Positions 5,522-40,058 of a stretch of 64,000 nt of DNA are shown here, piece after piece; the stretch's first letter is position 1, and the number at the start of each line of letters is the position of its first letter. This stretch comes from a virus, in IMG/VR virus record IMGVR_UViG_3300045988_154761, positions 96,001-160,000 of that record. One strand, written 5' to 3'. The notes under the pieces were generated by a model that was given only the letters and a program-made list of their open reading frames with translations, was not told the origin of the DNA and did no database searches. The position numbers and the translations under genes were made by a program.

Positions 5522-5599
5522 GGGTGTGTAGTTCAGTCTGGTCAGAACACTTGACTGTTAATCAAGGAGTCGAAGGTTCAAATCCTTCCATACCCGCCA
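5522..5599 (+). tRNA. tRNA-Asn(GTT)
   Basis: acceptor GGGTGTG/CATACCC, loop CTGTTAA, T arm GAAGG-TTCAAAT-CCTTC, G73, CCA. Confidence 0.85.
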
Positions 5600-6028: not shown

Positions 6029-6029
6029 T

Positions 6030-6113: not shown

Positions 6114-6137
6114 AAAAACAAAAGGAAGTAAATTCTA

Positions 6138-6443
6138 ATGACTGATTTTAAGACTTACATTTATTAGACAGCAAGTAATAAAAAGTTTGTTTATAGATGT
6201 CCTCATTGTAATAAAGGGATAATGCAAGTAGCAGAAATTAAAACTGTTAAAGATGAAACTAATATTTTATCTTGGAATTATACTTGTCCAGTTTGTAAGA
6301 AACAAATGGTTTCTATTGAAAAAGATGGTTGTTCTTCTTTTAAAAGTGTGTTCCCTCCAATGACTCAAATTAGTGATAAAGAATTTACTGATATTAAAAA
6401 GGATGTAGGAGAAAAAGGTATCTATCTGTTCTCTGAAATATAA
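6138..6443 (+). CDS. small zinc-ribbon protein (101 aa), 1 in-frame TAG
   Basis: ATG 6138 after AAAGGAAG; TAG at codon 10; CPHC...CPVC; the track ORF 6222-6443 is its 3' part. Confidence 0.6.
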
Positions 6444-6450
6444 AATAAAT

Positions 6451-6545
6451 GCTAGCGTACAGAAGTGGTCATAACTGCCATCACTTGAAATGATGTGTGA
6501 CGGCTTGTATCCGTCTCGTGAGTTCGAATCTTACCGCTAGTGCCA
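6451..6545 (+). tRNA. tRNA-Ser(TGA)
   Basis: acceptor GCTAGCG/CGCTAGT, anticodon arm CATCA-CTTGAAA-TGATG, long variable arm, T arm GTGAG-TTCGAAT-CTTAC, G73, CCA. Confidence 0.85.
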
Positions 6546-6565
6546 TTAAAAACGGAGTCTTTAAT

Positions 6566-6769
6566 ATGAAAATCTGGAATGGAAATGATTTTGAATATCT
6601 TGGTTATTTTGTAAAAAACAACAAGAAAGCTAAATATTTTGAGGTTTTTGACAAGAATGGCAATCTTCTTTTTAGACAAACTAATTGGGGTCATGCTTGT
6701 GTGACTTCAGTTAAACATAAGATTGAAGACTTTCATAAAAAATATAGACAGGAGATAAAAAATGAGTAA
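6566..6769 (+). CDS. hypothetical protein (67 aa)
   Basis: first ATG downstream of tRNA-Ser; the longer track ORF (6497) would overlap the tRNA. Confidence 0.6.
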   Translation: MKIWNGNDFEYLGYFVKNNKKAKYFEVFDKNGNLLFRQTNWGHACVTSVKHKIEDFHKKYRQEIKNE

Positions 6770-7277
6770 TAATAATTCAATCGAAATCGAACGTAAGTTT
6801 TTAATTTCTGGTTTTCCTAAAGTTGATTTTGACGAAGTTGGAATTGTTAAAACTATTTATATTAATATCAAATATAATTCTGATGGAAAAATTTTACAGG
6901 AAATTCGTATAAGACGTTGGTTTGAAAGTGGCAAAGGTTATCGTCCAGATACTCTTACTTTCAAATCTGGTGGTACTTTAACTCGCACTGAAATTGAAAC
7001 AAATCTTACAGATAATTCTTTGTTTGACTGTTTTAATGAACTTGGTTATAATCCTATTGTAAAAGATTATAGAGGTCTTTACAATAATGGTTATTTAATT
7101 GAATTCAATCTTGTAGATGGTGGAAGTGAGACTGCTTTCTATTATGCCGAAGTTGAATTCAATTCTGAGGAAGAAGCCAATAGTTTTGTTTGGCCTTTTC
7201 CTGAAGTATTTATTGAGGAAGTTACTAATAAGCCTGAATACAAAATGGCGAATTATTGGAAACGTACTCGTGGATAA
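6762..7277 (+). CDS. CYTH-domain (triphosphate tunnel metalloenzyme) protein
   Basis: N-terminal IEIERKFLI (ExExK signature) and YYAEVEF near the C-terminus. Confidence 0.75.
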   Translation: MSNNNSIEIERKFLISGFPKVDFDEVGIVKTIYINIKYNSDGKILQEIRIRRWFESGKGYRPDTLTFKSGGTLTRTEIETNLTDNSLFDCFNELGYNPIVKDYRGLYNNGYLIEFNLVDGGSETAFYYAEVEFNSEEEANSFVWPFPEVFIEEVTNKPEYKMANYWKRTRG

Positions 7278-7301
7278 GGACTATTATTTAGTCCTTTATT
7301 T
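7277..7301 (+). terminator. intrinsic terminator-like hairpin
   Basis: AGGACT/AGTCCT stem followed by TTTATTT. Confidence 0.5.
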
Positions 7302-7377
7302 GCTGGATTAGTTCAGTTGATAGAACGTATGATTTGTAATCATAATGTCAGGGGTTTGAGTCCCTTATCCAGCTCCA
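7302..7377 (+). tRNA. tRNA-Thr(TGT)
   Basis: acceptor GCTGGAT/ATCCAGC, anticodon arm TATGA-TTTGTAA-TCATA, T arm AGGGG-TTTGAGT-CCCTT, CCA. Confidence 0.85.
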
Positions 7378-7414
7378 TGAACTTTTTTATAAAATAAAAA
7401 AGAGGATTTTTATT

Positions 7415-7606
7415 ATGGACGAATTTTTAATCTCCGAAATCTTTGAGCTGATTAAAACTTTAAAGAAAGACAAGTATACCAAGTATACCATGAAAGATGT
7501 TAATACCATTTGCGATTTGCTTGGTATTGAATTATTTTGGTATCAAAAGTTTGTTCTTCTTCGTCAGCTTAATGATAAAAATTATATGAGGTATATATGC
7601 CGATAA
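7415..7606 (+). CDS. hypothetical protein (63 aa)
   Basis: ATG after AAAGAGGA; overlaps the next gene by 10 nt. Confidence 0.6.
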   Translation: MDEFLISEIFELIKTLKKDKYTKYTMKDVNTICDLLGIELFWYQKFVLLRQLNDKNYMRYICR

Positions 7607-7866
7607 GAAACGGAAACAATGATATTTATAGTGACATTTTCTTCCAATATTTGAATGAGAATGAAGAGAAGATGATTAATGAAACCGCTTCTAAGATGGA
7701 AGAACGAAATCCGATTCTTTATCCTAAAGATGTTTCAGTAGCAATTTTGAAATCCATCTATAGTGATTATAAGAAATATCTTTATGAGCACGGATATACT
7801 TTTAAGAAAGAATACTTAGAAGAATACTTTAAAAATTTATCAGAAGAAATTTTAAAAAGTACTTGA
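7597..7866 (+). CDS. hypothetical protein (89 aa)
   Basis: track ORF; its TGA stop lies inside the next promoter -35. Confidence 0.65.
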   Translation: MPIRNGNNDIYSDIFFQYLNENEEKMINETASKMEERNPILYPKDVSVAILKSIYSDYKKYLYEHGYTFKKEYLEEYFKNLSEEILKST

Positions 7867-7891
7867 CAAGATGATGAGTATGTGGTATACT
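7863..7891 (+). promoter_or_regulatory. sigma70/sigmaA-like promoter ahead of tRNA-Arg and tRNA-Gln
   Basis: TTGACA 7863-7868, 17 nt, TGG-TATACT (7886-7891). Confidence 0.7.
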
Positions 7892-7932
7892 TAAGATGTA
7901 GTTGAGATAAGAAATAAGTAAATCTTTGATAT

Positions 7933-8007
7933 GTGGACGTAGTTTAATGGCTAAAACGGTGGCCTCCGGTTCCGCAGATAGGGTTTCGATTACCCCCGTC
8001 CACTCCA
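7933..8007 (+). tRNA. tRNA-Arg(CCG)
   Basis: acceptor GTGGACG/CGTCCAC, loop CTCCGGT, T loop TTCGATT, CCA; one mismatch each in the anticodon and T stems. Confidence 0.7.
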
Positions 8008-8058
8008 GAAAAACAAATGTCTCTCTCTTGTAGACAGACAAGATTTCCTTTTTTGTGT

Positions 8059-8165
8059 ACTTCGTGGTGGTAACAGTACGATAAATAAAATAAGCCATGT
8101 CCTGTCGGACTCAGAAATGAGATGGATGTCCTCTGTGGAGAATCGGGATTCAGGGGCGAAGTACA
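8059..8165 (+). ncRNA. unclassified ~107 nt structured element between tRNA-Arg and tRNA-Gln
   Basis: 8 bp closing helix GTACTTCG (8059-8066)/CGAAGTAC (8158-8165); internal hairpins GTCC-TGTC-GGAC and CCAT...ATGG. Confidence 0.35.
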
Positions 8166-8172
8166 AAAATAT

Positions 8173-8246
8173 TGAGCATTAGAATAATGGTAGTTCATTA
8201 GGCTTTGACCCTAATGGTGGGGGTTCGAATCCCTCATGCTCAGCCA
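8173..8246 (+). tRNA. tRNA-Gln(TTG)
   Basis: acceptor TGAGCAT/ATGCTCA (U1:A72), anticodon arm TTAGG-CTTTGAC-CCTAA, G73, CCA. Confidence 0.85.
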
Positions 8247-8260
8247 ATTAAAGGAGATAT

Positions 8261-9232
8261 ATGGATATTTTAATTGATTAGTACACAAAAGAAGAGTTAT
8301 AGCAAATTTTAAATAATAGTTCTTCTTATTCTGACGCTTTAAGAAAATTAGGATATAATTCTACATCAAACGCTAATCGTCGGCATTTAAAGAGAATTAT
8401 AAAAGAAAAAAACTTAGAAGTTAATTTTCTTCCAAAGACATACATAAAGAAATTATCTGATGAAGAAATTTTCAAAGAAGATTCTCATGTTAGTTAGAGT
8501 TGTGTGCGAGAACATTTTTTAGCTTTAAATATAGTTGAGTATAAATGTTCTATATGTGGATAGGAACCGTTTTGGAATGGAAAACCTTTAACTTTAACAT
8601 TAGACCACATTAATGGTAAAAACCGAGATAACAGACTTGATAATTTAAGGTGGGTTTGTCCTAATTGCGATAGATAGCTTCCTATTTTTGGGCGGAAAAA
8701 TAAAACAGAGTTAAAAAAGAAGAAGTTAAAAAAATTTGATTTGGTAAAAAACAACAAACCAAAATCTTACAAAAAATATTTTAAAATTTACAAAGATAAC
8801 AAAAGATTTTGTTTGGGTTGTGGAAAAGAAATTACCAATAATTCTCTATATTGTTTTGATTGTGCTAATAAGCATAGAAGAAAACAAAAAGATAGACCAA
8901 CCAAAGAAGAGTTAGAAAAAATGTTAAAAGAAGAAAAGGGTAATTTTTCAAAAATAGCTAACCAATTTGGTATTTCTGATAATGCAGTTAGAAAATGGTG
9001 TAATAATTATGGTTTATCCTGTAAATCATCTGCTTATAAAGCACCAAAAAAAGAAAAACAACAACGAATTGAGAAACCTGTAAAGCAATTAGATTTAAAT
9101 GGTAATTTAATTAAAAGCTATTCTTCTATTAATCAAGCTTATGTTGAAACTAAAATAGAGCATATTTCTCAATGTGCGAACGGGTTAAGGAAAACAGCTC
9201 GGGGTTATAATTGGGAATTTGAAAAAGATTAA
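8261..9232 (+). CDS. HNH homing endonuclease with C-terminal HTH/NUMOD-like modules; 5 in-frame TAG
   Basis: ATG after AAGGAGA; frame checked end to end (TAG only); LDHINGKNRDNRLDNLRWVCPNCDR-TAG-LP; the track ORF 8741-9232 is its 3' part. Confidence 0.8.
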
Positions 9233-9251
9233 AAATTTTTTAACAATTAAC

Positions 9252-9373
9252 GTAGACGCTTACAGCAAACAATAATAAAATCAAATTCTATTAAAAAAGA
9301 TTTAGGGTATTGTTCCTTGCTAATTAGTTTATGATGCTTTCATGATTCTCCTTTGTTAGTATTATGCGTCTAG
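9252..9373 (+). ncRNA. ACAGCAA closing-helix element, copy E7
   Basis: TAGACGC (9253-9259) pairs with GCGTCTA (9366-9372); ACAGCAA 9262-9268; no T arm in the core. Confidence 0.55.
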
Positions 9374-9380
9374 TTTATAA

Positions 9381-9447
9381 GTGCCGTACCAAGGTTGGAG
9401 TCACTCGACGGAGGGCTTAAGAAGGGGTTCGAATCCCCCACGGTGCA
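9381..9447 (+). ncRNA. tRNA-like fragment (acceptor-like stem plus T arm, no foldable D or anticodon arms, no CCA)
   Basis: GTGCCGT/ACGGTGC stem and GGGG-TTCGAAT-CCCC; the middle 36 nt do not fold as a cloverleaf. Confidence 0.3.
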
Positions 9448-9503
9448 AGATTGAATTGTTTGGAGTACTACAAACAAGATGGTAAGTTATTGATGATTTA
9501 AAA

Positions 9504-9568
9504 GTAAACCCTTACAGCAATTTAACTATTTAATTTTTGCTTGAAAAAAGATTAAGGATAGGGTTTAG
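9504..9568 (+). ncRNA. ACAGCAA closing-helix element, copy E8 (short form)
   Basis: TAAACCCT (9505-9512) pairs with AGGGTTTA (9560-9567); ACAGCAA 9514-9520. Confidence 0.55.
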
Positions 9569-9584
9569 TCCTGTAATGTTGAAA

Positions 9585-9671
9585 GTAGACACTAACAGCA
9601 ATTAAAATAAAAATACTGGGAAATATATTTAATTGGAATAAATACTTTTTTAGATTTTTAAAGTGTCTAGG
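9585..9671 (+). ncRNA. ACAGCAA closing-helix element, copy E9 (short form)
   Basis: TAGACAC (9586-9592) pairs with GTGTCTA (9663-9669); ACAGCAA 9595-9601. Confidence 0.6.
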
Positions 9672-9680
9672 ATTTTATAT

Positions 9681-9816
9681 GGGGATGTATCTCAATTGGT
9701 CAGAGGGCCCGACTTATGTTTTAGTAGTTTAAAAGTAAAACTTTTAATGCAAGTGCAAGACTTGTCTAAAACACCAAATCGGGAAGTTGAGTGTTCGAGC
9801 CACTCCATTCCCACCA
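9681..9816 (+). tRNA. tRNA gene with a 59 nt insertion in the anticodon loop (Ile-UAU if excised at 37/38)
   Basis: acceptor GGGGATG/CATTCCC, D arm TCTC-AATTGGTCA-GAGG, anticodon stem CCCGA (9708-9712)/TCGGG (9779-9783) separated by 66 nt starting CTTATG, T arm GAGTG-TTCGAGC-CACTC, CCA. Confidence 0.65.
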
Positions 9817-9837
9817 ACGGTAGCAAATTCAAATAAA

Positions 9838-9907
9838 GTAGACTCTTACAGCAATTACTTAGAGACTTGTGATTTGGGATTACATATGTTTTGAAAAATG
9901 AGTCTAG
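9838..9907 (+). ncRNA. ACAGCAA closing-helix element, copy E10 (short form)
   Basis: TAGACTC (9839-9845) pairs with GAGTCTA (9900-9906); ACAGCAA 9848-9854. Confidence 0.6.
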
Positions 9908-9915
9908 CTTTATTA

Positions 9916-9992
9916 GCGCCTGTAGTCTAATTGGATAAAACCGCACTCTTCTAAAGTGTATCTTATGAGTTCGAATCTCGTCAGGCGTGCCA
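9916..9992 (+). tRNA. tRNA-Arg(TCT)
   Basis: acceptor GCGCCTG/CAGGCGT, anticodon arm GCACT-CTTCTAA-AGTGT, T arm ATGAG-TTCGAAT-CTCGT, CCA. Confidence 0.8.
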
Positions 9993-20690: not shown

Positions 20691-20937
20691 TGGAGTTAAA
20701 CTGTATAATGAACGTGTAACAAAAGAATTTCTTAAGTATCGCAAGGTTCATCGTATTTATTGCAGTGATTGTAATGTTGAAATGAAGCGAAGTGGAATGG
20801 TTTATGCTACTTATCCACCCCTTTATGAGTATGTATGTCCTAAGTGTAATCACAAAATGACTTCTTCTGTTATTTATCCTGCAATTGAAGAAGTTTGGGA
20901 AAATGAAGATGATATGAGAAGAGAGGTAATGGACTAA
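20680..20937 (+). CDS. zinc-ribbon protein (85 aa), GTG start
   Basis: GTG 8 nt after GGAGGA; CSDC...CPKC. Confidence 0.55.
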   Translation: MNTNGVKLYNERVTKEFLKYRKVHRIYCSDCNVEMKRSGMVYATYPPLYEYVCPKCNHKMTSSVIYPAIEEVWENEDDMRREVMD

Positions 20938-21896
20938 TGAGCAATATTAAGACTTATCAGAATGGCAACTATATGGTTTCCATCGACTTGGCAAATGGAA
21001 CCAAGACTCGTGAAAATGATTTGAGCTTTTTCAAGGCTGATTTTCCAGAGTGCTGTGATTATAAAATTACTAATAATTGCGCACAGGGTTGTAGCTTTTG
21101 TCATGAGAACAGTACTCCAAATGGTAAGCATGGTGACATTCTTGGTGAACAGGGTATCAAGGTTCTTGAAAGTTTCCATGAATACACCGAGCTTGCAATC
21201 GGAGGTGGAGACCCTCTTTCTCATCCTGATTTGATTCCTTTCCTTCGTAAGTGTAAGGAGCTGAATCTTATCCCTAACATGACTGTTCACCAGTTTTCCT
21301 TTATGAAGAATCAGGAGCTTATTGAACAGCTTGTTAATGAGAAGCTTATTTATGGTATTGGTGTCTCTCTTGTTGACCCTCTTCAGCCGCAGTTCCTTAA
21401 GACTATTTCTAAGTATCCTAATCTTGTTCTTCATGTTATTAATGGCATTGTAACGATGGATACTCTTCGTGCTCTTAAGAATCGTGGGCTTAAGATTCTT
21501 ATTCTTGGCTATAAGACTGTTCGTCGTGGTGAAGAGTATGTTAAGGAAGATTGGGCTAAGGAACTTGTAACAAATAAGCAGAAGGCAATCTATGATAATC
21601 TTGGTCGTATGATTGATGAAAAGTGGTTCTCTGTTATTAGTTTTGACAATCTTGCTATTAAACAGCTTGAGCCTAAACGTCTTATGTCTGAGGAAGATTG
21701 GAATACTATGTATATGGGCGAAGACTATGATAATATGTCTAGTGCTTCTATGTACATTGATGCAGTAGAAATGCAGTTTGCTTGTAACTCTTGTGATGTA
21801 AATCATCGTTATGATGTTGGCAATAAGACTGTTACTGAAATGTATCAATTCTTGAGAGATTTAAATGGAGGAAACAACGATGAAACAAATTCGTAA
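20937..21896 (+). CDS. radical SAM enzyme (substrate unknown)
   Basis: CAQGCSFC (CxxxCxxC) near the N-terminus and AIGGGDPLSHPD (GGE-like SAM motif). Confidence 0.8.
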   Translation: MSNIKTYQNGNYMVSIDLANGTKTRENDLSFFKADFPECCDYKITNNCAQGCSFCHENSTPNGKHGDILGEQGIKVLESFHEYTELAIGGGDPLSHPDLIPFLRKCKELNLIPNMTVHQFSFMKNQELIEQLVNEKLIYGIGVSLVDPLQPQFLKTISKYPNLVLHVINGIVTMDTLRALKNRGLKILILGYKTVRRGEEYVKEDWAKELVTNKQKAIYDNLGRMIDEKWFSVISFDNLAIKQLEPKRLMSEEDWNTMYMGEDYDNMSSASMYIDAVEMQFACNSCDVNHRYDVGNKTVTEMYQFLRDLNGGNNDETNS

Positions 21897-23378: not shown

Positions 23379-23440
23379 TTAGACTCTCACAGCAAACTAC
23401 AAAAAACTTTTATTTTGAAAAAAGGACAAAAAGAGTCTAG
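23379..23440 (+). ncRNA. ACAGCAA closing-helix element, copy E11, in the 5' leader of the vWA protein gene
   Basis: TAGACTCT (23380-23387) pairs with AGAGTCTA (23432-23439); ACAGCAA 23389-23395. Confidence 0.6.
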
Positions 23441-23462
23441 TCCTTTAGAAAAGGAGAAAATT

Positions 23463-25181
23463 ATGTATAACTACAACAATCCTAACAAGAAGAATAACAC
23501 TAAGGCTTGGGCTCCTAAGCCTGAAAAGCCTGTTACTAAGTCCAACCGAGTTAGCCGTAAGGCTTCTTTCATGGACAAGGTTGAGAATACTGCTAAGGGT
23601 TACTACACTCAGATTGCAGTTCCTTCTCTTCCTGCTGATAAGCAGTACACTTCTAACGGTGCTATTGCATACAAGTCCTCTGGTTCTGCTCTTCTTGACA
23701 TCAACACTTCCATCTCTGCTCTTCGTAGCCTGCCCGATGGTGATATTGTGAAGAAGTTCCGTGCAGCTTATTGTGAGAATCCTCGTCTCGCTATTCGTTG
23801 GCTGTTCTATGCTGGCGATATCCGTGAGGGTCAGGGTGAGCGCCGTCTCTTCCAGATTTGCCTTAAGGATATGATGAACAATGGTGGTGCTCAGATTGTG
23901 GCGAACCTGATTCCTATGATTCCTGAGTATTCTCGTTGGGATTATATCTATGTTGTCATGGATAATCCTACTACTAAGCCTGTTGTTCGTGAACTGATTC
24001 GTAAGCAGTGGAAGGAAGATATGGCTAATATGAAGAAGGGCAAGTCCATTAGCCTTATGGCGAAGTGGCTTGATAGTGCTTCTTCTCACAGCCATGATAC
24101 TCGTAAGCGTGGTCTTAAGACTATGGATATGCTCGGTCTGACTGAGCGTGAGTATCGCAAGGGTCTGTCTGCTCTTCGTAAGCACCTTGACGTTGTTGAG
24201 CGTAAGATGTCTTCTCAGAATTGGCAGAGCATTGATTATGAGACTGTTCCCTCTAAGGCAAACCTTAATTACAATAAGGCTTTCCTTCGTAATGATGAGG
24301 AGCGCCGTCGTGCCTATCTGAACGCTCTTACTAAGGGCGAGGCAAAGATTAATTCTTCTGTATCTAATCCTTGTGACATTGTTCACAAGTATTGCGAGAA
24401 TGATTGGGGTACTTCTCCTCATTCTTATGATGCCGCCCTTGAAGGCATGTGGAAGGCTCTTCCCAATCTTGTAACCGATGATAGTTCCACTATTGTTGTT
24501 GCCGATGGCTCTGGTTCTATGTGCGCTACTGTTGGTCGTACTCGTATGACTGCTCTTGAGGTTGCTAACTCTCTTGCAATTTACTTTGCAGAGCGTGCTA
24601 AGGGTGCATATAAGGGTCGTTACATTACTTTCTCTGCACGTCCTCAGATGGTTAATGTTAATCATGACTCTTTGCGTGCAAATCTTAGGGAAGCTGCTCG
24701 TCATAGTGAGATTGCTAATACCAACCTTGAAGCAGTATTTGACCTGATTCTTGATACTGCAATTAAGAATCATTCTCCTCAGAGTGATTTGCCAAAGAAT
24801 ATTCTGATTATCAGTGATGGTGGTTGGGATTCTATGGTAAATATTCGTACTCTTAATACTGGCAGTGGTTATGGTTATTGGGGCTATAACAGCACTCGTG
24901 CTACTGCTAAGGAAGCTCCTGCTTTCCTTAAGTCCATTGAGCAGAAGTACAAGAACGCTGGATATGAGATGAGCAAAATTTGTTATTGGAATGTTTGCGG
25001 AAACGGTACTACTGGTAACGGTCTTCCCATGACTAAGAATGATTATGGTATCATGGTCAGCGGGTTTAGTATCCAAACTTTGAAAATGATTCTCAGCGGC
25101 AAGACTAATCCTTGGGATGCACTTATGGAAGTGGTTTTGGATAAGCGTTACGACAAGATTGAAGAGCTAGCTTTTAAGTAA
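23463..25181 (+). CDS. DUF2828-like protein: helical N-terminal region plus C-terminal vWA domain with MIDAS
   Basis: ATG 23463 after AAGGAGA; NGAIAYKSSGSALLD, RLAIRWLFYAGDIREGQGERRLF, VVADGSGSM (DxSxS). Confidence 0.7.
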   Translation: MYNYNNPNKKNNTKAWAPKPEKPVTKSNRVSRKASFMDKVENTAKGYYTQIAVPSLPADKQYTSNGAIAYKSSGSALLDINTSISALRSLPDGDIVKKFRAAYCENPRLAIRWLFYAGDIREGQGERRLFQICLKDMMNNGGAQIVANLIPMIPEYSRWDYIYVVMDNPTTKPVVRELIRKQWKEDMANMKKGKSISLMAKWLDSASSHSHDTRKRGLKTMDMLGLTEREYRKGLSALRKHLDVVERKMSSQNWQSIDYETVPSKANLNYNKAFLRNDEERRRAYLNALTKGEAKINSSVSNPCDIVHKYCENDWGTSPHSYDAALEGMWKALPNLVTDDSSTIVVADGSGSMCATVGRTRMTALEVANSLAIYFAERAKGAYKGRYITFSARPQMVNVNHDSLRANLREAARHSEIANTNLEAVFDLILDTAIKNHSPQSDLPKNILIISDGGWDSMVNIRTLNTGSGYGYWGYNSTRATAKEAPAFLKSIEQKYKNAGYEMSKICYWNVCGNGTTGNGLPMTKNDYGIMVSGFSIQTLKMILSGKTNPWDALMEVVLDKRYDKIEELAFK

Positions 25182-26818: not shown

Positions 26819-27230
26819 TGAATGGCGTAAAGAGTTTGGTCGTGTTCAAGTTTTACTTTATGCTTTTCCTAATGTTTTAAAGAAAATTGGCAATGAAGAT
26901 TTAATCAAAGAACTTAAGATTTTAGGTTATGATGAGCATACTCTTGACTTTCTTAACTCAGCTATGGATGCTTGGGAGAAAGTTGAAAAAGAAGAGCTTA
27001 TGAAAGATATGAATGTTCAACCTGACCCAGATACTATTCCAGTTCCTAAGAAAGCACCTGTTGCACCTGAAGAGCCTAAAAATCCTTCTATTTCTAATTA
27101 TCATTTTCAACCTGCTTGGTGTAGTAATTGTATTCATAGTTGGGGAATAGACTGTTTTAGAGACCCTCTAAATGATATACCTTGTCCTAATTATAGAAGA
27201 GACCCGCCCGATGGAGGTTTTTACGGATAA
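26799..27230 (+). CDS. hypothetical protein (143 aa)
   Basis: track ORF; overlaps both neighbours. Confidence 0.65.
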   Translation: MTVKEYNEWRKEFGRVQVLLYAFPNVLKKIGNEDLIKELKILGYDEHTLDFLNSAMDAWEKVEKEELMKDMNVQPDPDTIPVPKKAPVAPEEPKNPSISNYHFQPAWCSNCIHSWGIDCFRDPLNDIPCPNYRRDPPDGGFYG

Positions 27231-28171
27231 TGAGAGTTTTATCTTTGTTTGATGGTATTAGTTGCGGTCATCTTGCACTTGAGAGAGCTGAAATTAAGAT
27301 TGATTCTTATGATGCTTATGAAATTGAAAAGAACGCAATTAAAGCTACAGAAACAAATTTCCCTGATGTGATTCAGCATGGAGATGTAACCATAGAAGAT
27401 TTTACCAAATATAAAGGTAAAATTGATTTACTTATTGGGGGTTCACCTTGTACAAATTTGAGCATGGCTGGTAATGGTCAAGGATTAAAAGGTTCTCAAA
27501 GTAAATTGTTTTATGAATATGCTCGTGCAATAAAAGAAGTCCAACCCAAATATTTTTTACTTGAAAATGTAATTATGAAAAAAGAATGGGAAGATATTAT
27601 TACAAATATTCTTGGAGTAGAACCCATTGAAATTAATTCTTCTCTTGTTTCAGCACAGAACAGACGTAGACTTTATTGGACTAATATCCCTAATGTAACA
27701 CTTCCCGAAGATAAAAATATTACTCTGGAAGATATTCTTGAAGATATTGAATTTCCCAATCCTGCGGCAATTAGAGGTCGTAGATTAAATAAAGCCACTA
27801 TTGTTGGTCGCAGATTAGATAAAAACGGGCATAGAAAAGATACTGATAAAACAATTCCTATTACACAATGTCTCGAAGTCCGCGCTACAAACACAGACAA
27901 ATCAAATTGTCTCACTACTGTAGACAAGGATAATGTTCTTACGCCACTTCCTATTGGTAGACATCCAGATGCTTTTAAAAATAATTTACCTTTTAGATAT
28001 TATACTACTAAAGAAATGTGTCGTTTACAGACTGTTCCTGATGATTTTCTTAATATGATTCCAGATAGTGCAGCAAGAAAGGCATTAGGTAATGGATGGA
28101 CAGTAGATGTAATTGCTCATATTTTTAGTTTTCTTCCAGATGAATATAAAGAGGACAAAATAAATGATTAA
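27230..28171 (+). CDS. dcm: DNA (cytosine-5)-methyltransferase
   Basis: motifs LFDGISCG (I), GGSPCTNLS (IV), ENV (VI), QNRRRLYW (VIII), GNGWTVDV (X). Confidence 0.9.
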   Translation: MRVLSLFDGISCGHLALERAEIKIDSYDAYEIEKNAIKATETNFPDVIQHGDVTIEDFTKYKGKIDLLIGGSPCTNLSMAGNGQGLKGSQSKLFYEYARAIKEVQPKYFLLENVIMKKEWEDIITNILGVEPIEINSSLVSAQNRRRLYWTNIPNVTLPEDKNITLEDILEDIEFPNPAAIRGRRLNKATIVGRRLDKNGHRKDTDKTIPITQCLEVRATNTDKSNCLTTVDKDNVLTPLPIGRHPDAFKNNLPFRYYTTKEMCRLQTVPDDFLNMIPDSAARKALGNGWTVDVIAHIFSFLPDEYKEDKIND

Positions 28172-28346
28172 GATTGGTGAAAAAGAATTTGTTAATGGAG
28201 ATATCTATTACAATCCTTTCTTTGGGGATTTGTGGATAATTCAAAATAACACCGAGATACGTAAAATCAATGACACGTATACTACTGATGTTAACGATGT
28301 TGTTGGCTTTGTGCATGTAGGTCACATTGATTTAGAGGTTAATTAA
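28164..28346 (+). CDS. hypothetical protein (60 aa)
   Basis: track ORF; 8 nt overlap with dcm. Confidence 0.55.
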   Translation: MIKIGEKEFVNGDIYYNPFFGDLWIIQNNTEIRKINDTYTTDVNDVVGFVHVGHIDLEVN

Positions 28347-28712
28347 ATGAGCTACGATATTAGTTATAGAGTCCAATGTAAAGATAACCCTAAACTTTGG
28401 GCTGATGTTGGAAACTGTGAAGCAAATATAACTTACAATTTGAGAGAAATGATTCAAAAGTCAACAGGTTTAGAATGGAAGAACGAAGAAGATAACGGTC
28501 TTGTAAAAGATGTTATTCCATTTATCATTCATGGCTTAGAAGAACTTGAAAGATTTCCAGATAAATATAAACAGTATGAATCTCCTAATGGATGGGGAAC
28601 AATCAGTGGATGTAAGAGCTTCTTTACTCGATGTATTTTAGATTGGACTAATTTTACAGAAGATAGTTGGACTTCTCCTTATAAAGACATTGTTCATTTT
28701 TGGATTGTATGA
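28347..28712 (+). CDS. hypothetical protein (121 aa)
   Basis: starts directly after the previous stop. Confidence 0.7.
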   Translation: MSYDISYRVQCKDNPKLWADVGNCEANITYNLREMIQKSTGLEWKNEEDNGLVKDVIPFIIHGLEELERFPDKYKQYESPNGWGTISGCKSFFTRCILDWTNFTEDSWTSPYKDIVHFWIV

Positions 28713-28909
28713 AATCAAATCAATATTTAATAAATCTAAATTTGGCAAATTGTTTATTTTATTTATATTATTTTATTTTAATTGGAATGGCAGGATTAGA
28801 TAATTCCACTGGAGAAATATTAACTCCTTTTTGTTTATTTATAAGTGGTTGTTTATTTATGATTGCTGTTCATTTTTTCAAACTTTATTTAAAGGACAAA
28901 GAAAAATGA
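28709..28909 (+). CDS. small membrane protein (66 aa)
   Basis: ATGA overlap with the upstream stop; two hydrophobic segments. Confidence 0.55.
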   Translation: MKSNQYLINLNLANCLFYLYYFILIGMAGLDNSTGEILTPFCLFISGCLFMIAVHFFKLYLKDKEK

Positions 28910-29133
28910 CGATTGAAAGACTAAGAGATATTCTCAATGATGTAGCAAACGGTGCAAATTGGGAACTATACAAAAACTCATTAGTAGTAATTAGCGTAGA
29001 AGATTCTAGAAACACTGTGGGAAGTAGACCTTACACAAAAGTTCGCTCAGTAGGCATGGGCTTTGATTGGGAAACAGGTCAATTTAGAATTGAACCTGAA
29101 AATAAATTAATGGAGGTTAGTAAAAGAAAATGA
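28906..29133 (+). CDS. hypothetical protein (75 aa)
   Basis: ATGA overlap with the upstream stop. Confidence 0.6.
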   Translation: MTIERLRDILNDVANGANWELYKNSLVVISVEDSRNTVGSRPYTKVRSVGMGFDWETGQFRIEPENKLMEVSKRK

Positions 29134-29402
29134 ACACTACTCAAGTTGCTTTGTGCATCATTCTTGCTATCGGAGTTTTAACAATTTTCTTTTTAGCAGG
29201 AACTATTATTGGTGGTATCCACGCTTATTCAAAAGCTTTTGCAGAAGCCGAAGAAACTCATAAAAATTTAGATGAGGCTAAAGAAAGTCTTATTAAATCT
29301 TTAGAGGGGAAAGCAGAAGCACAAAAAGAACTTATTGAATCCTATGAAGAGCTGGTAAAAACTCTTCAAGAAAAAAATAATAAACCCTTGACAGGAAACT
29401 AA
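29130..29402 (+). CDS. membrane-anchored coiled-coil protein (90 aa)
   Basis: N-terminal TM helix VALCIILAIGVLTIFFLAGTIIGGI followed by a Lys/Glu-rich helix. Confidence 0.65.
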   Translation: MNTTQVALCIILAIGVLTIFFLAGTIIGGIHAYSKAFAEAEETHKNLDEAKESLIKSLEGKAEAQKELIESYEELVKTLQEKNNKPLTGN

Positions 29403-29416
29403 TCTTATGGTATATT
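29388..29416 (+). promoter_or_regulatory. sigma70/sigmaA-like promoter of the large ncRNA
   Basis: TTGACA 29388-29393, 17 nt, TGG-TATATT (29411-29416). Confidence 0.7.
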
Positions 29417-29422
29417 AAGATT

Positions 29423-30195
29423 GTCCCAAGGGAAAGGACGAAAAAAGTGCGGAAGAGATTCCCATTGGTTTGCACTACTCGGGCCTGATAGACAAATCAC
29501 GCTCTTACCTGTAAGACACACAATTGAATATTCAATAATAGCTGAGATGCAATGACTTCGAAAGAAGCACCCTTCATAGGAATAGGAACTATGAAGATAC
29601 TAAGAGCATCTAGCTCTCCACCTGAAAGTTAATGGTGGAAAATTCTTGCAAGAATCACGAAATCCTACCCTCCGAATTCTTGCTCGGTGGTGCAGGTTGA
29701 TTGCCAACTAAAGATGTTGGACAAAGAGCGAGATACCTTTTAAGTGTAATGGTTAGAGGCTTATAGTAGGGTGAATACACCTATTCCCTACAAATGACTT
29801 GCTGGTGAAGAGTATCAGCCAAAGAGCGTCGCATTGTCCAGAGTACTGTAGTATAGGACCAAAGGCTCGTAGTGAGTCCAGATGCTAGGACCAGAGGCTC
29901 ATAGTGAGGCGAACGTTGTCTATTCCTCACCTTTAATAAGAATCCGATGGGGGTCGGAGCGCTTATTATCGTATTTGAATAACCTACGGGTAGGTTGTTC
30001 GCAGTTTTACAGAAGACTTGTAGATTTATAATCACTTGTCCGTCGAAATGGATAGCCGCAAACGGGAAAGTTTCAATGAGTGTAGGAAGTAATGTAACGG
30101 GGAATAACTTCCAAGTCTTCACAATTTATTGAATTAGCTAATTTAATAAAAGGTCTCATAATTAATTTAATATTGATTATGAGACTTTTATTTTT
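29423..30195 (+). ncRNA. large (~770 nt) structured noncoding RNA candidate with its own promoter and terminator
   Basis: no plausible ORF (only a 113-aa antisense one); visibly higher GC than the flanks; many helices (CTTCATAG/CTATGAAG, CCAAC/GTTGG, AACCTA-CGGG-TAGGTT, GGAAGT/ACTTCC, GTGAGG/CCTCAC); internal duplicated module GGACCA(A/G)AGGCTC(G/A)TAGTGAG. Confidence 0.6.
30153..30195 (+). terminator. intrinsic terminator of the large ncRNA
   Basis: 10 bp stem GTCTCATAAT (30153-30162)/ATTATGAGAC (30177-30186) followed by TTTTATTTTT. Confidence 0.75.
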
Positions 30196-30211
30196 ATAAT
30201 AGAGGTGTAAC

Positions 30212-30730
30212 ATGGAAAACATTTGGAAAACGTCATTGGAAAATAAGAAGAAAGAATGGAAGACGGTACTCGAAAATAAGAAGAAAGAACTTTCTGAGAT
30301 TAACAAAGATTTAAACAATCTTACGAGAAAATCTTATGATGAATATATTATGAAAGAACTCGCTCCAAAGCTGATTGGAAAATGTTATATTCATCAGGGA
30401 CATTATATTATGATTATTCAACCTCCTAAGTTGTTAGAAGGAAGATGTGATGTTAACTATTCTTCTTCATGGGGTTGTATTGAAATTAACAATTTTGAAG
30501 ATGAAACACCTTATGGTTGTTATACAGATTCAGAAATTGATGTAGCTCCTTATTATAATGAAGACATTGATTTGTTTTTCCTTTTAAATTATCCGAAAAA
30601 TTTTGACCATTTTCAACCTATTTCTCGTGATGAATTTAATGTAAGAATGGATGAAGCGGTTAGGAAATCTAGGGAACTAATTGAAAAAATGGAGAAAAAT
30701 ATTACTCCTCGTAAATTTTATAGATTTTAA
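30212..30730 (+). CDS. hypothetical protein (172 aa) with duplicated N-terminal ENKKKE(W/L) motif
   Basis: ATG after AGAGGTG. Confidence 0.7.
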   Translation: MENIWKTSLENKKKEWKTVLENKKKELSEINKDLNNLTRKSYDEYIMKELAPKLIGKCYIHQGHYIMIIQPPKLLEGRCDVNYSSSWGCIEINNFEDETPYGCYTDSEIDVAPYYNEDIDLFFLLNYPKNFDHFQPISRDEFNVRMDEAVRKSRELIEKMEKNITPRKFYRF

Positions 30731-30746
30731 GAAAGGGGAATAAAAT

Positions 30747-31757
30747 ATGTTTTTTAAGAAGCCAGAAAAAAAGATTATTCTCGAATATGACTCTTACCCT
30801 GCATCTAGTGTAGATTTTGAAGAATCTTCCAGCGAATCTTACACGAATAATCTTCCTAACCACATAATTATCGACAATCATATTTGGGAATATGAAAAAA
30901 TGGAAGATGTACCTTTTCCTGTTGGAGAAGATTGGGAATGGATTGATTGTTACAAGGCTCTTTATAAGACCTATTATGAAAAAATAAAATATGTAGGTCC
31001 AAGTAGAAAGTTCGTATATGAACTTAACAAAGTTTATGCCTTACCAGAAGGAGAAGAAGAATTTAGCAAAGTGGATTACTGTGGCAATGGTTTTCATGCT
31101 TGCTTAACTGTAAAAGATGCTCTGAAATGGTATAATTATATTTCATATGTTTCAAATTATGGTTATACTTATTCTGTTAGTGTTAAATTAACCGTTGTTG
31201 CAAAAGCAAAACTTTTGGTTAATAAAAAAGATTTATCAAACTGCTATGGAAAGCAAAATCTTGATAAAGGCAAAATTGTTGGTAAAGCGATTGTATTAAC
31301 TGGTTTTGTTAGTCCAGAAGAAGTTTACTCTAATCGAGAACAAGATATGTATTGGACCAGTAGTATTCTTAATAGTAATGCTTGCGATTATTTAAAATCT
31401 GCTTGTAAAACTAAAGAGGTTAGTTTAAACACTCTCGAAAAACTGACAAAAAATCTTAATATCACTCTCTTTGATTATAAAAAAATGCTTAATCTTGTTG
31501 AGAATGGCAAACATTTTGATATGACTTATGCTCAATGTATGTTTGATGTATATATTGACGAAGATAAAAAAGTTTCTCAGTGTTTAAACATGAATTATGG
31601 TCATGTATTGGCAGAAGAAATCATCAGCCATCTTGATTATCGACTTGCTATAATTGCTATAAAATTGGCTGACAATGATGATGCTTATAACAGAAGTTTA
31701 TCCGTAGCAGAAAAGATGCAAATTCTTTATTCTCATCAGATGCTTTCTAAAAAGTAA
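30747..31757 (+). CDS. hypothetical protein (336 aa)
   Basis: ATG after AAAGGGGAA; family not recognised. Confidence 0.75.
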   Translation: MFFKKPEKKIILEYDSYPASSVDFEESSSESYTNNLPNHIIIDNHIWEYEKMEDVPFPVGEDWEWIDCYKALYKTYYEKIKYVGPSRKFVYELNKVYALPEGEEEFSKVDYCGNGFHACLTVKDALKWYNYISYVSNYGYTYSVSVKLTVVAKAKLLVNKKDLSNCYGKQNLDKGKIVGKAIVLTGFVSPEEVYSNREQDMYWTSSILNSNACDYLKSACKTKEVSLNTLEKLTKNLNITLFDYKKMLNLVENGKHFDMTYAQCMFDVYIDEDKKVSQCLNMNYGHVLAEEIISHLDYRLAIIAIKLADNDDAYNRSLSVAEKMQILYSHQMLSKK

Positions 31758-31769
31758 ATTAATAAGTAG

Positions 31770-31798
31770 TTGACAAACTCGAAAGAGTATGTTAATAT
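31770..31798 (+). promoter_or_regulatory. sigma70/sigmaA-like promoter of the hairpin sRNA
   Basis: TTGACA 31770-31775, 17 nt, TGT-TAATAT (31793-31798). Confidence 0.7.
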
Positions 31799-31804
31799 AA
31801 TAAT

Positions 31805-31930
31805 AAGAACTGTGGTACAATTTACCTCCTTATAATAGACTGAATTTGCTAATAAGGCCACCTCCTTTTTCGTATTTTGTTCATGTTTGTTTCCTCCAAA
31901 AACAAATTTTGTACCACAGTTCTTTTTTAT
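31805..31930 (+). ncRNA. ~125 nt hairpin RNA (sRNA or attenuator) carrying three CCUCC motifs
   Basis: 16 bp perfect arms AAGAACTGTGGTACAA (31805-31820)/TTGTACCACAGTTCTT (31909-31924) followed by a T-run; CCTCC at 31825-31829, 31861-31865 and 31893-31897; the predicted TSS coincides with the 5' arm. Confidence 0.55.
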
Positions 31931-31952
31931 TCCTTTGTAAAGGAGCTTGTTA

Positions 31953-32177
31953 ATGAGATTGAATGATGTATCTCTAATAAGTTTTGCTCTTTATCTTTTA
32001 TGCGGGTTTGCCGTAACATATAATGTTTATAATTGTCCTGCTAATAAAAATGATAAAGAAGTAACCTTGTTGCATTATTTAACTTTGATTTTTTGCTGGC
32101 CTATTGCTCTTGTTATGGCAGCAATTTATTGGTTTAAGATTCAAAGTGAAATAAGAAAACAGAAGAAAATTAAATAA
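31953..32177 (+). CDS. small membrane protein (74 aa)
   Basis: ATG 7 nt after AAAGGAG; two hydrophobic helices. Confidence 0.6.
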   Translation: MRLNDVSLISFALYLLCGFAVTYNVYNCPANKNDKEVTLLHYLTLIFCWPIALVMAAIYWFKIQSEIRKQKKIK

Positions 32178-32182
32178 AACTC

Positions 32183-32211
32183 TTGACAACAGACTCTTTT
32201 TGGTTTATACT
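32183..32211 (+). promoter_or_regulatory. sigma70/sigmaA-like promoter inside an anti-SD/SD hairpin
   Basis: TTGACA 32183-32188, 17 nt, TATACT 32206-32211; AGACTCTTTT (32191-32200) pairs with AAAGGAGTCT (32232-32241). Confidence 0.65.
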
Positions 32212-32248
32212 ATTGATAGTAAATTAGACTGAAAGGAGTCTTTTCTAT

Positions 32249-33070
32249 ATGTGCAAATGGTGTGAGAATTATAGATTCACTATTAACGCTACGAGCAAAA
32301 AGAATCTTATTAACCATGGTGATTTTTATGTTCATGTTAATTATTGTCCTGTATGTGGTACTTTACTAAATGAAAATCTCAAAAAGGACAATGATTTAAA
32401 CAAACGCTATATTATTCGTATTAAGCCTAATGTAACAGGACTGGGTGTCCCTGTAAATGGACAAAACTATTATTATACTGCGGAAGGTATGACCCGCGAA
32501 GAGGTCATTTTTGAAACAAAAAATGAAGCTTGTCCTTTTAAGACTTACTTCGAAGCAAAATGCACTGCTGATTGGTTTTTCAATGAAGAAGATTATGAAA
32601 TTGAAGAAATTGTAAGCCCTAATACACCAAAAGAATCCTCAACAAAAAAAAGCAAAGAGCGAGTTTATTTTGCTAAAATTAAAGTTCCTATTGGAAGCAA
32701 AGAAGACCAAGAAAGAAAAGTTTTTTATAAGGGGGCCACTCATTTTGGTGATAAACCTATCCTTACAGATGAAGATGGAGCAAAATATTTTAGCTCTACC
32801 AAAGCTCTTAAAGAAGAATTGGATTGGTTTTATAAACCAGAAGATTATATTGTTATTTTCAAAGATATTGTCAAAATGGAATTGCCTGACCATAAAGATG
32901 AAAAGAAAGAAAAACTTCCTCATTTTACGAAGGAAGATTTTTACTATAAGTCTGATTCTGGTAGTGTAATTAGTACAATTTACGATAGAAACACGAACAA
33001 AAAATACGAATTTTCTTCTAAGACAATTGATAAATTTAATCAAATCATAGATAAACTTAACAGTTTATAA
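32249..33070 (+). CDS. hypothetical protein (273 aa) with N-terminal zinc ribbon
   Basis: CKWC...CPVC. Confidence 0.75.
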   Translation: MCKWCENYRFTINATSKKNLINHGDFYVHVNYCPVCGTLLNENLKKDNDLNKRYIIRIKPNVTGLGVPVNGQNYYYTAEGMTREEVIFETKNEACPFKTYFEAKCTADWFFNEEDYEIEEIVSPNTPKESSTKKSKERVYFAKIKVPIGSKEDQERKVFYKGATHFGDKPILTDEDGAKYFSSTKALKEELDWFYKPEDYIVIFKDIVKMELPDHKDEKKEKLPHFTKEDFYYKSDSGSVISTIYDRNTNKKYEFSSKTIDKFNQIIDKLNSL

Positions 33071-39026: not shown

Positions 39027-40058
39027 ATGGCAACTGTTTAGTATCATTATGGTAAAAATAATTCTTTGCTTCGTTGGTATCATCCTATTGTAAGAGGTGT
39101 GACTTATAATAATGTGGTGGTAATTGATTGGCCTAAGAGTGAACTAAAGAGCGCAAGTATTGATATGTGTACGCAACCAAAGCTTAGTCCTGAAAAGATG
39201 TATAGTCTTTATGGGTATAAGCCAGACGTTGTTACAAACGCTTTCTTTTTTGATACTGCAAGCGGAACTTCTATCTGGAATTTGAAAAGTAATAATACCA
39301 TTTATGCTCAGGATGGTAATTTCTCTAATGGTTGGGGTATTACAAATTCTGGAAAGATTATGAATGGCGTATTTAATAATGGTGTTGGTTGGAGAGATTT
39401 TGGCACAGAATATCCTGCTTTGTTTAAAAATAAACAACCTCAATCTGTAAAAAACTATGCTGACATTGATTATGAAGCCAAAAGACAGATGTTCGGTTGG
39501 ACAAAGACAGATGGTAATCCTAAAAACGAAAAGTATTTTATTGTTTCTGTTGTATCTGGTGGTATGAAACTTTCCGTTGCTCAGAATCTTATTAAATCTC
39601 TTTTTCCTGATGTAGATTATTGTTGCAATCAAGATGGCGGAAATTCTACTTACACAAACTTTGAAGGAAAGCGTCTTTCTGCGTCTGGTTGGTTAAGACC
39701 TGTTGATTCTATTCTTGCTTTCTGGCTTCGCTCTAATGCTGAAAGAGAAAAAGCAGAAATAGAAGAAAAAAAGCAAGACAAGGCTAACAAGAAAGAAGAA
39801 AACCGTCCTAAGAAAACTGGTTATCGTTGTCAGTTAGGAGCATTTAGTAATTCAACTCGCGCAATTACTTATAGAAATGAAATTAGAACTCTTACTGGCG
39901 TAATTGATTATTCAACTGCTTTTTGTATTCAAGACCCCAAGACCAAGCTCTATAAAGTTCAAGTAGGATTCTTTGCTAAAAAATCTGGCGCTGAAAAAGT
40001 TAAAGCTGATTTAGCTGAAAAGGGATATAATTGTTATATCTGCTATGTGGAGGAATAA
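39027..40058 (+). CDS. putative cell-wall lysin: phosphodiester-glycosidase (NAGPA/DUF2233)-like domain plus C-terminal SPOR domain; 1 in-frame TAG
   Basis: ATG after GGAGATA; TAG at codon 5; VVTNAFFFD and NQDGGNSTY motifs; C-terminal YRCQLGAFSN...YKVQVGFF SPOR-like repeat. Confidence 0.65.

Follow-up and report, generated by a model that had tools for sequence, protein, structure and literature searches.

A candidate new class of large structured noncoding RNA from a clade of human-gut phages

The region described here spans positions 29388-30195 on the + strand of a 64,000-nt stretch of DNA (the window, to which all coordinates refer) that corresponds to positions 96,001 to 160,000 of the IMG/VR virus record IMGVR_UViG_3300045988_154761. 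It comprises a promoter, approximately 770 nt without a conserved open reading frame (ORF) and a strong intrinsic terminator, and it is followed by the gene for a 172-aa protein. An initial annotation, made from the letters of the window, had taken this segment for a stand-alone large ornate noncoding RNA gene. That description was borne out by a promoter, body and terminator that recur together in 37 homologues, by gaps that are blind to any reading frame, by covariation and by a preference for the + strand. We conclude that the segment is very probably a structured noncoding RNA gene.

Features of the locus:
29388-29416, + strand: sigma-70-type promoter, with -35 TTGACA at 29388-29393, a 17-nt spacer and an extended -10 TGgTATATT at 29408-29416
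29423-30195, + strand: predicted noncoding RNA transcript of ~773 nt, with homologues at the same locus, no conserved ORF and no Rfam match
30149-30195, + strand: intrinsic terminator, with 18-nt arms (30149-30166 and 30172-30189), a 5-nt loop and then a T-run (U-run in the RNA) to 30195
30201-30730, + strand: downstream gene, with the Shine-Dalgarno (SD) sequence AGAGGUG at 30201-07 and the 172-aa ORF at 30212-30730

Promoter, terminator and homologues of the RNA gene

The promoter scored 11/12 plus the extended -10 in a consensus scan, which made it joint top in 27000-33000, and of the two joint-top sites in that region it is the only one with the TG of an extended -10. The predicted transcription start lies at ~29420-29423, and the promoter stretch (43 nt) is 95.8% identical among relatives. 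A consensus promoter overlapping the stop of the upstream gene had been noted initially and was confirmed as TTGACA-17 nt-TG-n-TATATT, with the TAA stop (29400-29402) of the upstream 90-aa ORF falling inside it. The terminator that had been placed at 30153-30195 with a 10-bp stem is also present, although the stem is larger, with 18-nt arms that begin at 30149 and are 89% complementary. It is kept in every full-length homologue.

The GC content of the RNA segment was 0.42-0.45 over 300-nt windows, with 200-nt windows reaching 0.48, compared to 0.29-0.33 in the flanks and 0.324 over the whole window, in agreement with the raised GC reported initially. The segment folds with a minimum free energy of -226.7 kcal/mol (z = -4.4 against dinucleotide shuffles, + strand). 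The z-score alone cannot identify the strand, because the reverse strand also folds with z = -4.8 against such shuffles. ARAGORN called no tRNA or tmRNA in the RNA region, and the region gave no Pfam match.

No match to the RNA was found among 50,697 GenBank phage records (blastn, distant mode). Relatives of the downstream 172-aa protein were present on 15 IMG/VR contigs of 108-220 kb, and all 15 (15/15) carried an RNA homologue directly upstream of the gene for this protein. The set was widened through more distant homologues of the 172-aa protein and through pattern scans of metagenomes and GTDB genomes, resulting in 59 full-length RNA copies, 37 of them distinct, with lengths of ~630-850 nt excluding the promoter. 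All recovered homologues occupy the same locus in one clade of human-gut phages (contigs of 100-220 kb), and their sources are human-gut assemblies almost throughout. One homologue contig had been binned as 'uncultured Clostridium sp. UMGS1616'; this bin, together with the TTGACA/extended -10 promoter and distant protein similarity to Bacillus and Enterococcus phages, suggests that the host of the clade is probably a member of the Bacillota.

DNA pattern scans, both exact and degenerate, of IMG/VR, GTDB and JGI/ENA metagenomes returned only the same phage clade plus chance matches. The matches outside the clade (Omnitrophota, Cardiobacteriales and Rhabdochlamydiaceae contigs, Ga0207964, Ga0247813) were as numerous as expected by chance and were unconfirmed by nhmmer, and no distant homologue was reached by these scans. 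Because matches outside the clade were at chance level and none was confirmed, the RNA family is real but narrow.

The RNA is an accessory cassette that is dispensable in some lineages, because a close relative (L042, flanking gene 78% identical) keeps the promoter without the RNA. In this relative the same promoter is followed after ~45 nt by the SD sequence of a 160-aa gene, with no RNA between them (L042 1491-1585). The empty site holds a short AT-rich stretch, and since this remnant resembles the 3' side of the terminator a deletion is suggested. In a more distant relative (L032-35) the two flanking genes overlap and no RNA was found anywhere in 10 kb.

Conservation and domain architecture of the RNA

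The longest + strand ORF between promoter and terminator is 49 aa, and no ORF is conserved in the 37 homologues, so the initial view that the segment holds no credible ORF stands. A conserved coding frame in homologues, named in the same annotation as one observation that would speak against an RNA, was looked for in the 37 sequences and none was found. A 113-aa ORF with a GTG start on the - strand (29781-30122) is intact in 2/37 homologues only. Many relatives have a + strand ORF of 58-90 aa in their 3' domain, but the window and several other sequences lack it. Only five of the 28 distinct gap runs are multiples of three, and run lengths include 1, 2, 5, 7, 8, 10 and 11 nt. Counted by phase, the variable sites of the 3' domain number 27, 16 and 16, a codon periodicity that is not significant.

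Mean pairwise identity was 95.5% in the 3' domain and 90.8% in the 5' domain. In the two flanking genes, identity was 79.5-86.6% at codon position 3 and 92.8-95.7% at positions 1 and 2 (computed over alignment columns in the reading phase of the window; some flanking genes were extracted imperfectly). Conservation of the RNA exceeds that of codon positions 1 and 2 of the downstream flanking gene and equals that of the same positions in the upstream one. When one set of helices is scored on both strands, 98-99% of the pairing is canonical on + compared to 88-92% on -, and consensus energies are likewise better on the + strand (-102.9 vs -91.7 and -111.2 vs -88.2 kcal/mol). Relatives gain or lose entire hairpins, and stems show compensatory substitutions. 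The covariation check with metagenome homologues that had been proposed initially lent support to many helices and to a pseudoknot. The segment thus combines its own promoter and terminator with covarying helices, strand asymmetry and no conserved ORF. These patterns indicate that both its sequence and its base-pairing are under purifying selection, and the G-U wobbles and the covariation-supported pseudoknot point to an RNA rather than a DNA element.

The predicted transcript divides into a 5' domain, a variable middle and a 3' domain. Features of the 5' domain, where A1 denotes an alignment of 14 IMG/VR-derived sequences, are:
29423-29655, + strand: 5' domain, multi-hairpin, with optional hairpin extensions and insertions in relatives (RNAalifold covariation, hairpin-sized indels)
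29523-29536, + strand: 14-nt perfect palindrome AUUGAAUAUUCAAU, predicted hairpin with the self-complementary loop AUAU (invariant columns in A1)
29539-29556, + strand: 18-nt stretch UAGCUGAGAUGCAAUGAC, mostly unpaired in the consensus fold (invariant in A1)
29554-29568, + strand: GAAA-capped hairpin GACUUC-GAAA-GAAGC (from the alignments); most relatives carry a 27-nt longer hairpin here
29572-29596, + strand: 8-bp hairpin with the conserved 9-nt loop GAAUAGGAA (covarying pairs)
29618-29638, + strand: optional hairpin CCACC-UGAAAGUUAAU-GGUGG (loop conserved, stem covaries)
29642-29655, + strand: 14-nt palindrome AUUCUUGCAAGAAU with loop UGCA (near-invariant)

RNAalifold on 33 distinct sequences gave 78 pairs in the 5' domain with 1.6% non-pair cells; 11 of these pairs showed compensatory change, compared to a mean of 3.2 and a maximum of 7 under a column-shuffle null. 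Indels in this domain are hairpin-sized (26/27 and 50/52 nt), and some relatives carry a 50-52-nt branched insertion in place of a small hairpin near the 5' end. Tetraloop-capped helices had been reported initially and were seen again, for example with GAAA at 29560-29563. In the GAAUAGGAA hairpin, pairs 232-250 and 233-249 show CG/UA and AU/GC/GU types. The stem of the UGAAAGUUAAU hairpin occurs as CCACC/GGUGG, CCCUC/GAGGG and CCUCC/GGAGG, and the L001/L006 group lacks the entire hairpin through a deletion. Within UAGCUGAGAUGCAAUGAC, the metagenome homologue L081 differs by one U-to-C substitution, and exact-match scans of IMG/VR with this stretch returned the same 15 contigs only. The 3' half of AUUCUUGCAAGAAU is also complementary to the hairpin loop AAUUCUUGC at 29675-29683, and all three substitutions observed give G-U wobbles in either pairing; a pseudoknot or switch between the two is possible. 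RNAalifold on 14 sequences had suggested a long-range helix joining 29509-29517 to 30113-30123; this helix was rejected as covariation was unsupportive (column pair 142/878: UA 7, CA 3, UG 3, CG 1), and it competes with a local 8-bp helix.

The variable middle (29664-29930) has two kinds of repeated module, termed X and Y, in alternation:
29664-29696, + strand: junction helix CCUAC...GUAGG around the hairpin CCUCCG-loop-CGGUGG (inner stem covaries)
29701-29730, + strand: X module copy 1, a 5-bp hairpin with a 7-nt purine-rich loop, then CAAAGAGCG (A3 covariation)
29748-29791, + strand: Y module copy 1, type 2 (GGGU/ACCU, GUAGGG/CCCUAC; covariance model R1 55.6 bits, E 4e-16)
29799-29828, + strand: X module copy 2, with stem GCUGGU/AUCAGC, then CAAAGAGCG (A3 covariation)
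29854-29885, + strand: truncated Y-like copy, first arm of a 23-nt direct repeat (covariance model R1 12.9 bits, E 0.02)
29886-29930, + strand: Y module copy 2, with S1 GGAC/GUCU, S2 GUGAGG/CCUCAC and the loops AGAGGCUCAUA and UGAAC (covariance model R1 70.9 bits)

The fifth pair of the junction helix occurs as C-G, A-U or U-A, with some mismatches. Each X module consists of a 5-6-bp hairpin with a conserved purine-rich 7-nt loop, followed by the invariant tail CAAAGAGCG. Its stems vary freely (CCAAC/GUUGG, GCUGGU/AUCAGC, CUGAU/AUCGG and GAUAAUGU/ACAUUAUC), and in an alignment of 16 variants (A3) 95% of cells were paired and three of five pairs were compensatory, a score that 0/500 shuffles reached. 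The Y module is a 44-45-nt H-type pseudoknot with the conserved loops AGAGGCUYAUA and UGAAY. Stem S1 occurs as GGAC/GUCU, GGGU/ACCU or GGGUC/GACCU and stem S2 as GUGAGG/CCUCAC, GUAGGG/CCCUAC or GUGUGG/CCACGC. In an alignment of 24 Y variants (A2), 98.8% of cells were paired and four of ten pairs were compensatory; again 0/500 shuffles reached the observed score, and slid controls were 40-63% paired.

The RNA of the window has two X modules, two Y modules and one truncated Y. Each homologue has one to three middle-domain X modules (raw X counts being swollen by unrelated 5'-proximal matches) together with one or two complete Y modules, and Y module copy 2 is present in nearly every one. Covariance model R1, built on the Y module, found no further copies elsewhere in the window, and a scan of IMG/VR with the Y pseudoknot pattern returned the same contigs only. 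The internal duplication of ~27 nt that had been assigned to 29866-29925 is real, but its coordinates were slightly off: the two copies are 23 nt long, lie at 29854-29876 and 29886-29908 and are 91% identical, with a third related copy at 29755-29775. The spacings of these direct repeats are 32 and 138 nt, with other elements in between.

Features of the 3' domain:
29931-30148, + strand: 3' domain, nearly invariant, predicted multi-helix (95.5% mean pairwise identity)
29934-29968, + strand: predicted helix UAAUAAG/CUUAUUA enclosing a UCCGA...UCGGA hairpin
29977-30000, + strand: predicted hairpin AACCUA-CGGG-UAGGUU
30012-19 with 30113-20, + strand: predicted 8-bp closing helix GAAGACUU/AAGUCUUC
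30040-51, 30056-65 and 30085-30112, + strand: predicted small hairpins inside the closing helix
30125-30150, + strand: palindromic hairpin before the terminator, with loop AGCU

For the 3' domain RNAalifold gave 85 pairs with 0.7% non-pair cells and 3 compensatory pairs, compared to ~1 in the null. The most divergent homologue (L041) keeps the 3' helices via U-A to C-G and A-U to G-C changes, and the predicted helices are plausible. Across the RNA, three perfect-palindrome hairpins (29523-36, 29642-55 and 30125-50) carry the self-complementary tetraloops AUAU, UGCA and AGCU, respectively. One version of the RNA (L040, a 1-kb Logan contig, positions 1-231) lacks the whole 3' domain, its last Y module being joined near its beginning directly to the terminator's 3' arm; it may be a natural deletion or an assembly artefact.

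An identical 15-nt string, ACCTTTAATAAGAAT, is found both where the last Y module meets the 3' domain (29929-29943) and at 1527-1541, just upstream of an ORF at 1562. The string is AT-rich, and the match (blastn-short E 0.036) is probably due to chance. A search for antisense targets of the RNA within the window gave short matches in the chance range only, the best being this 15-nt direct match at 1527-1541.

Comparison with known RNAs and possible roles

Rfam 15 gave no match in the RNA region at the gathering threshold when applied to the whole window. At E<=10 the slices 29100-30500, 29880-30200 and 29420-29900 (1401, 321 and 481 nt, respectively) returned only noise, e.g., miRNA and snoRNA models, and the covariance models of GOLLD (RF01998), ROOL (RF03087), OLE, HEARO, raiA and Y RNA found nothing in the RNA region. 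The initial annotation had suggested Rfam comparisons with five of these families (GOLLD, ROOL, HEARO, raiA and OLE), which thus gave no match at E<=10, and it had cautioned that the RNA may be a new class. Given the lack of an Rfam match, this caution is a better description than membership of GOLLD or ROOL. No published description of the RNA was found in the literature, although viral catalogues of short (30-151 nt) structured-RNA candidates (PMC10690425) might hold fragments of it.

The RNA resembles GOLLD in being a large (~800 nt), elaborately folded noncoding RNA encoded by a phage or prophage, in belonging to a genome with a tRNA array, and in having a strongly conserved 3' region beside a variable, insertion-tolerant 5' and middle part (PMC12286853 for GOLLD), which is a resemblance and not homology. 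It differs in its repeated X and Y modules, none having been described for GOLLD, and in its confinement to a single gut-phage clade. With ROOL it shares phage association, pseudoknots, a large and highly structured fold, a (here probable) Bacillota-type host and a gut or rumen environment, but it is 630-850 nt in length compared to ~580 nt and has a modular repeat architecture. GOLLD and ROOL are often found at tRNA clusters, whereas here the tRNA array (388-9992) and the RNA start (29423) are 19.4 kb and more than 30 ORFs apart; with the nearest tRNA ~19 kb away, the RNA is not tRNA-adjacent. The likeness to GOLLD and ROOL drawn at the outset therefore extends to size, to origin in a phage and to the contrast between a conserved 3' part and a more variable remainder, and fails for tRNA adjacency and for matches to the models. 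OLE, HEARO (the IscB omega RNA) and raiA share the size class, the structural complexity and the GC enrichment in an AT-rich genome; unlike them, the present RNA is phage-encoded and has neither the partner genes oapA/B/C nor IscB nearby.

In the repetition of a small unit, with an invariant loop or single-stranded motif on variable stems and a copy number that varies, the RNA recalls CsrB/RsmZ sponges and ToxI repeats. Unlike those, its units are not in tandem, no cognate protein gene is adjacent and there is a large, invariant, non-repetitive 3' domain. A CsrA sponge of the CsrB/RsmZ type was rejected as unlikely because GGA is not enriched (14 observed vs 12.5 +/- 3.1 in shuffles). ToxI-type antitoxins consist of ~34-36-nt head-to-tail tandem repeats beside a gene for a toxin endoribonuclease; the repeats here are not head-to-tail tandem and the neighbouring ORFs have no toxin domain, which excluded ToxI-like membership. 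A Y RNA, the partner of Ro60/TROVE proteins, was likewise discarded, with no Rfam match and with a Ro-like DUF2828 gene present in L032, which lacks the RNA.

The reading that we favour, with a probability of about 0.5, is that the segment encodes a stand-alone, ~770-nt structured RNA that acts in trans as a multivalent scaffold or decoy and forms an accessory cassette of the early region of these gut phages. The RNA would be transcribed early by host RNA polymerase from the sigma-70-type promoter, released as a discrete, stable transcript at the intrinsic terminator, and its fold would let it act in trans. Multivalent sites formed by the X and Y modules would gather or sequester a single kind of partner in several copies; this partner might be an RNA-binding protein of the host or the phage, or a second molecule of the RNA itself. 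The core fold would come from the conserved 3' domain, and module copy number (one to three per RNA) would tune capacity. Multivalent binding is proposed because the loops and tails of the X and Y modules are identical on interchangeable stems and their copy number is variable.

Several points weigh against this reading. The family is narrow (~90-95% identical), and the covariation draws on a small number of independent events (three Y types, four or five X types), with the 3' domain too conserved for covariation to test its predicted fold. The repeated modules could be architectural rather than binding sites. Apart from a C5 DNA methylase, the neighbouring proteins gave no informative domains (Pfam, PHROGs) and no partner was identified among them; the AlphaFold2 model of the 172-aa protein (pLDDT 58.6) was too poor and was not used for a fold search. 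The apparent need of the downstream gene for read-through of the terminator also leaves room for a role in cis.

The main rival to a scaffold or decoy is a self-assembling, RNA-only particle of the GOLLD/ROOL kind, in which the 3' domain and perhaps the palindromic loops would mediate a homo-oligomeric cage or ring while the modules decorate it or sit inside. Several large RNAs have been seen by cryo-EM to form RNA-only assemblies that are unprecedented among natural RNAs (PMC12286853), and the size class, the phage origin and, as for GOLLD (PMC12286853), a 3' part better conserved than the 5' and middle parts would fit such a particle. Elements like the three palindromic hairpins, with their self-complementary loops, make symmetric kissing contacts in OLE and GOLLD. 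However, three self-complementary loops among ~15 are only weakly unusual (p ~0.07, a rough estimate), a closed symmetric assembly should tolerate gains and losses of modules poorly, and neither the GOLLD or ROOL models nor the position 19.4 kb from the nearest tRNA lend support. We regard a particle as unlikely, although it survives best of the alternatives.

An anti-defence decoy, in which the pseudoknot modules would mimic a host RNA (e.g., a type III antitoxin such as ToxI, or some other RNA ligand of a defence system) and so neutralize an abortive-infection nuclease, is less likely again. Compact repeated pseudoknot units of variable copy number do recall ToxI-type repeats, and Blower and colleagues are said to have described in 2012 how phages evade ToxIN with pseudo-ToxI repeats. 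The setting would also suit such a role, as the RNA is present in some lineages and absent in others and lies in an early accessory region, with a restriction-alleviation gene (Lar_restr_allev) near the locus in L032 and a C5 DNA methylase in the window. The units are, however, not head-to-tail tandem (spacings of 32 and 138 nt), the large invariant 3' domain is left unexplained, and we know of no toxin or defence-system homologue that binds a module of this kind.

A giant cis-acting leader, in which the RNA and its terminator would form an attenuator for the 172-aa gene with the pseudoknots sensing a ligand or protein, was rated low, a little below the anti-defence decoy. Expression of the 172-aa gene probably depends on read-through of the RNA terminator because the gene appears to have no usable promoter of its own, the only promoter-like site before it being at 30173-30200, with a start that would fall inside the SD sequence. 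The RNA-free arrangement of L042, in which the promoter sits ~45 nt before the gene, and the resemblance of repeated modules to tandem aptamers, also favour a leader. On the other hand, ~770 nt is far above the length of known leaders, the RNA is more conserved than the gene to be regulated, and module number varies while the terminator region is unchanged. The terminator and its preceding hairpin are strong and nearly invariant, and no antiterminator pairing with the terminator arms was seen on inspection by eye, no systematic search having been made.

An element acting at the DNA level, either an origin with iterons and palindromic protein sites or a packaging site, is very improbable. The 21-23-nt direct repeats, the three perfect palindromes and an ORF-free stretch of unusual composition would be expected of such an element. 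Yet G-U wobbles would be A-C mismatches on the other strand, where canonical pairing drops as given above, and compensatory changes that preserve a pseudoknot are meaningless in duplex DNA; promoter and terminator bracket the segment on the same strand, and it is dispensable in a close relative. The weakest alternative, a decaying or very small coding region (a pseudogene or small ORFs), is less probable still: the 113-aa - strand ORF and the 58-90-aa + strand ORFs of many relatives are inconsistently kept, gap runs of 1, 2, 5, 7, 8, 10 and 11 nt interrupt any frame, Pfam is silent, and nucleotide conservation is at or above that of codon positions 1 and 2 of the flanking genes (equal upstream, above downstream).

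The RNA is a genuine candidate for a new class of large structured phage RNA with a narrow distribution. More tentatively, it may be the founding member of a new class of giant ornate phage RNAs (a conserved 3' core with variable numbers of the new 45-nt Y pseudoknot and of the new hairpin-CAAAGAGCG module) that self-assembles into a higher-order RNA particle or acts as a multivalent decoy of a host factor in early infection of human-gut Bacillota, a fuller proposal that we hold as possible but doubtful. To our knowledge only a handful of very large, intricate bacterial and phage RNAs are known (GOLLD, ROOL, OLE, HEARO and raiA), with functions that are mostly unsolved, and an unrelated further class from abundant human-gut phages would widen this set. 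Natural experiments are on offer in relatives with and without the RNA, in RNAs with one, two or three module copies and in the L040 version without the whole 3' domain. The RNA is of interest to structural biologists, and the variants in module number and in presence or absence would make it approachable in vitro. Its compact Y pseudoknot, whose loops are invariant, is a candidate new recognition motif.

Neighbouring genes and other features of the window

A 588-aa DUF2828/DUF7788 protein with a weak VWA domain is encoded 4.2 kb upstream of the RNA (23415-25181). Homologues with DUF2828/VWA domains are annotated as 'RNA-binding protein' in some Enterococcus phages (database annotation). The gene is present in all 15 IMG/VR relatives and also in L032, and as L032 has the gene without the RNA an obligatory partnership was ruled out. 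The protein had no sequence match in the PDB, and its relatives occur in 695 phage records, all at <60% identity. The gene has a GC content of ~0.50 in a genome of 0.32 GC and contains a 543-aa antisense ORF, presumably a by-product of this composition.

The C5 DNA methylase gene upstream of the RNA (27230-28171) has no intein in the window. In one relative (L076 1-1118) the corresponding gene is split by an intein that carries a LAGLIDADG homing-endonuclease domain, and its product is 660 aa long. A radical-SAM protein (20937-21896) and a SPOR-domain peptidoglycan-binding protein (39066-40058) stand out amid otherwise unannotatable early-region ORFs.

A gap of 646 nt between convergent genes (60366-61012) has a GC content of 0.36 with a peak of 0.47 at ~60551-60850 and gave no Rfam match better than E 0.3; a terminator region or a further small RNA may lie here.

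The phage tRNA array (388-9992) comprises 13 genes by ARAGORN and 14 by Rfam, and the two lists differ. Rfam alone called 3278-3341 and an unusually long 133-nt match at 9681-9813, and ARAGORN alone called a tRNA-Ser at 6451-6545. Within the array, 715-1560 is ORF-poor with a GC content of 0.405 and no Rfam or ARAGORN call. It contains tRNA-like T-arm/acceptor ends that finish in CCA, such as GGTTCGAATCCAATTATAGGGTCCA at ~925-948 and GGAGTTCGATTCTTCTCTGCCGCTCCA at ~1160-1187, and these elements may be intron-containing or degenerate tRNA genes.

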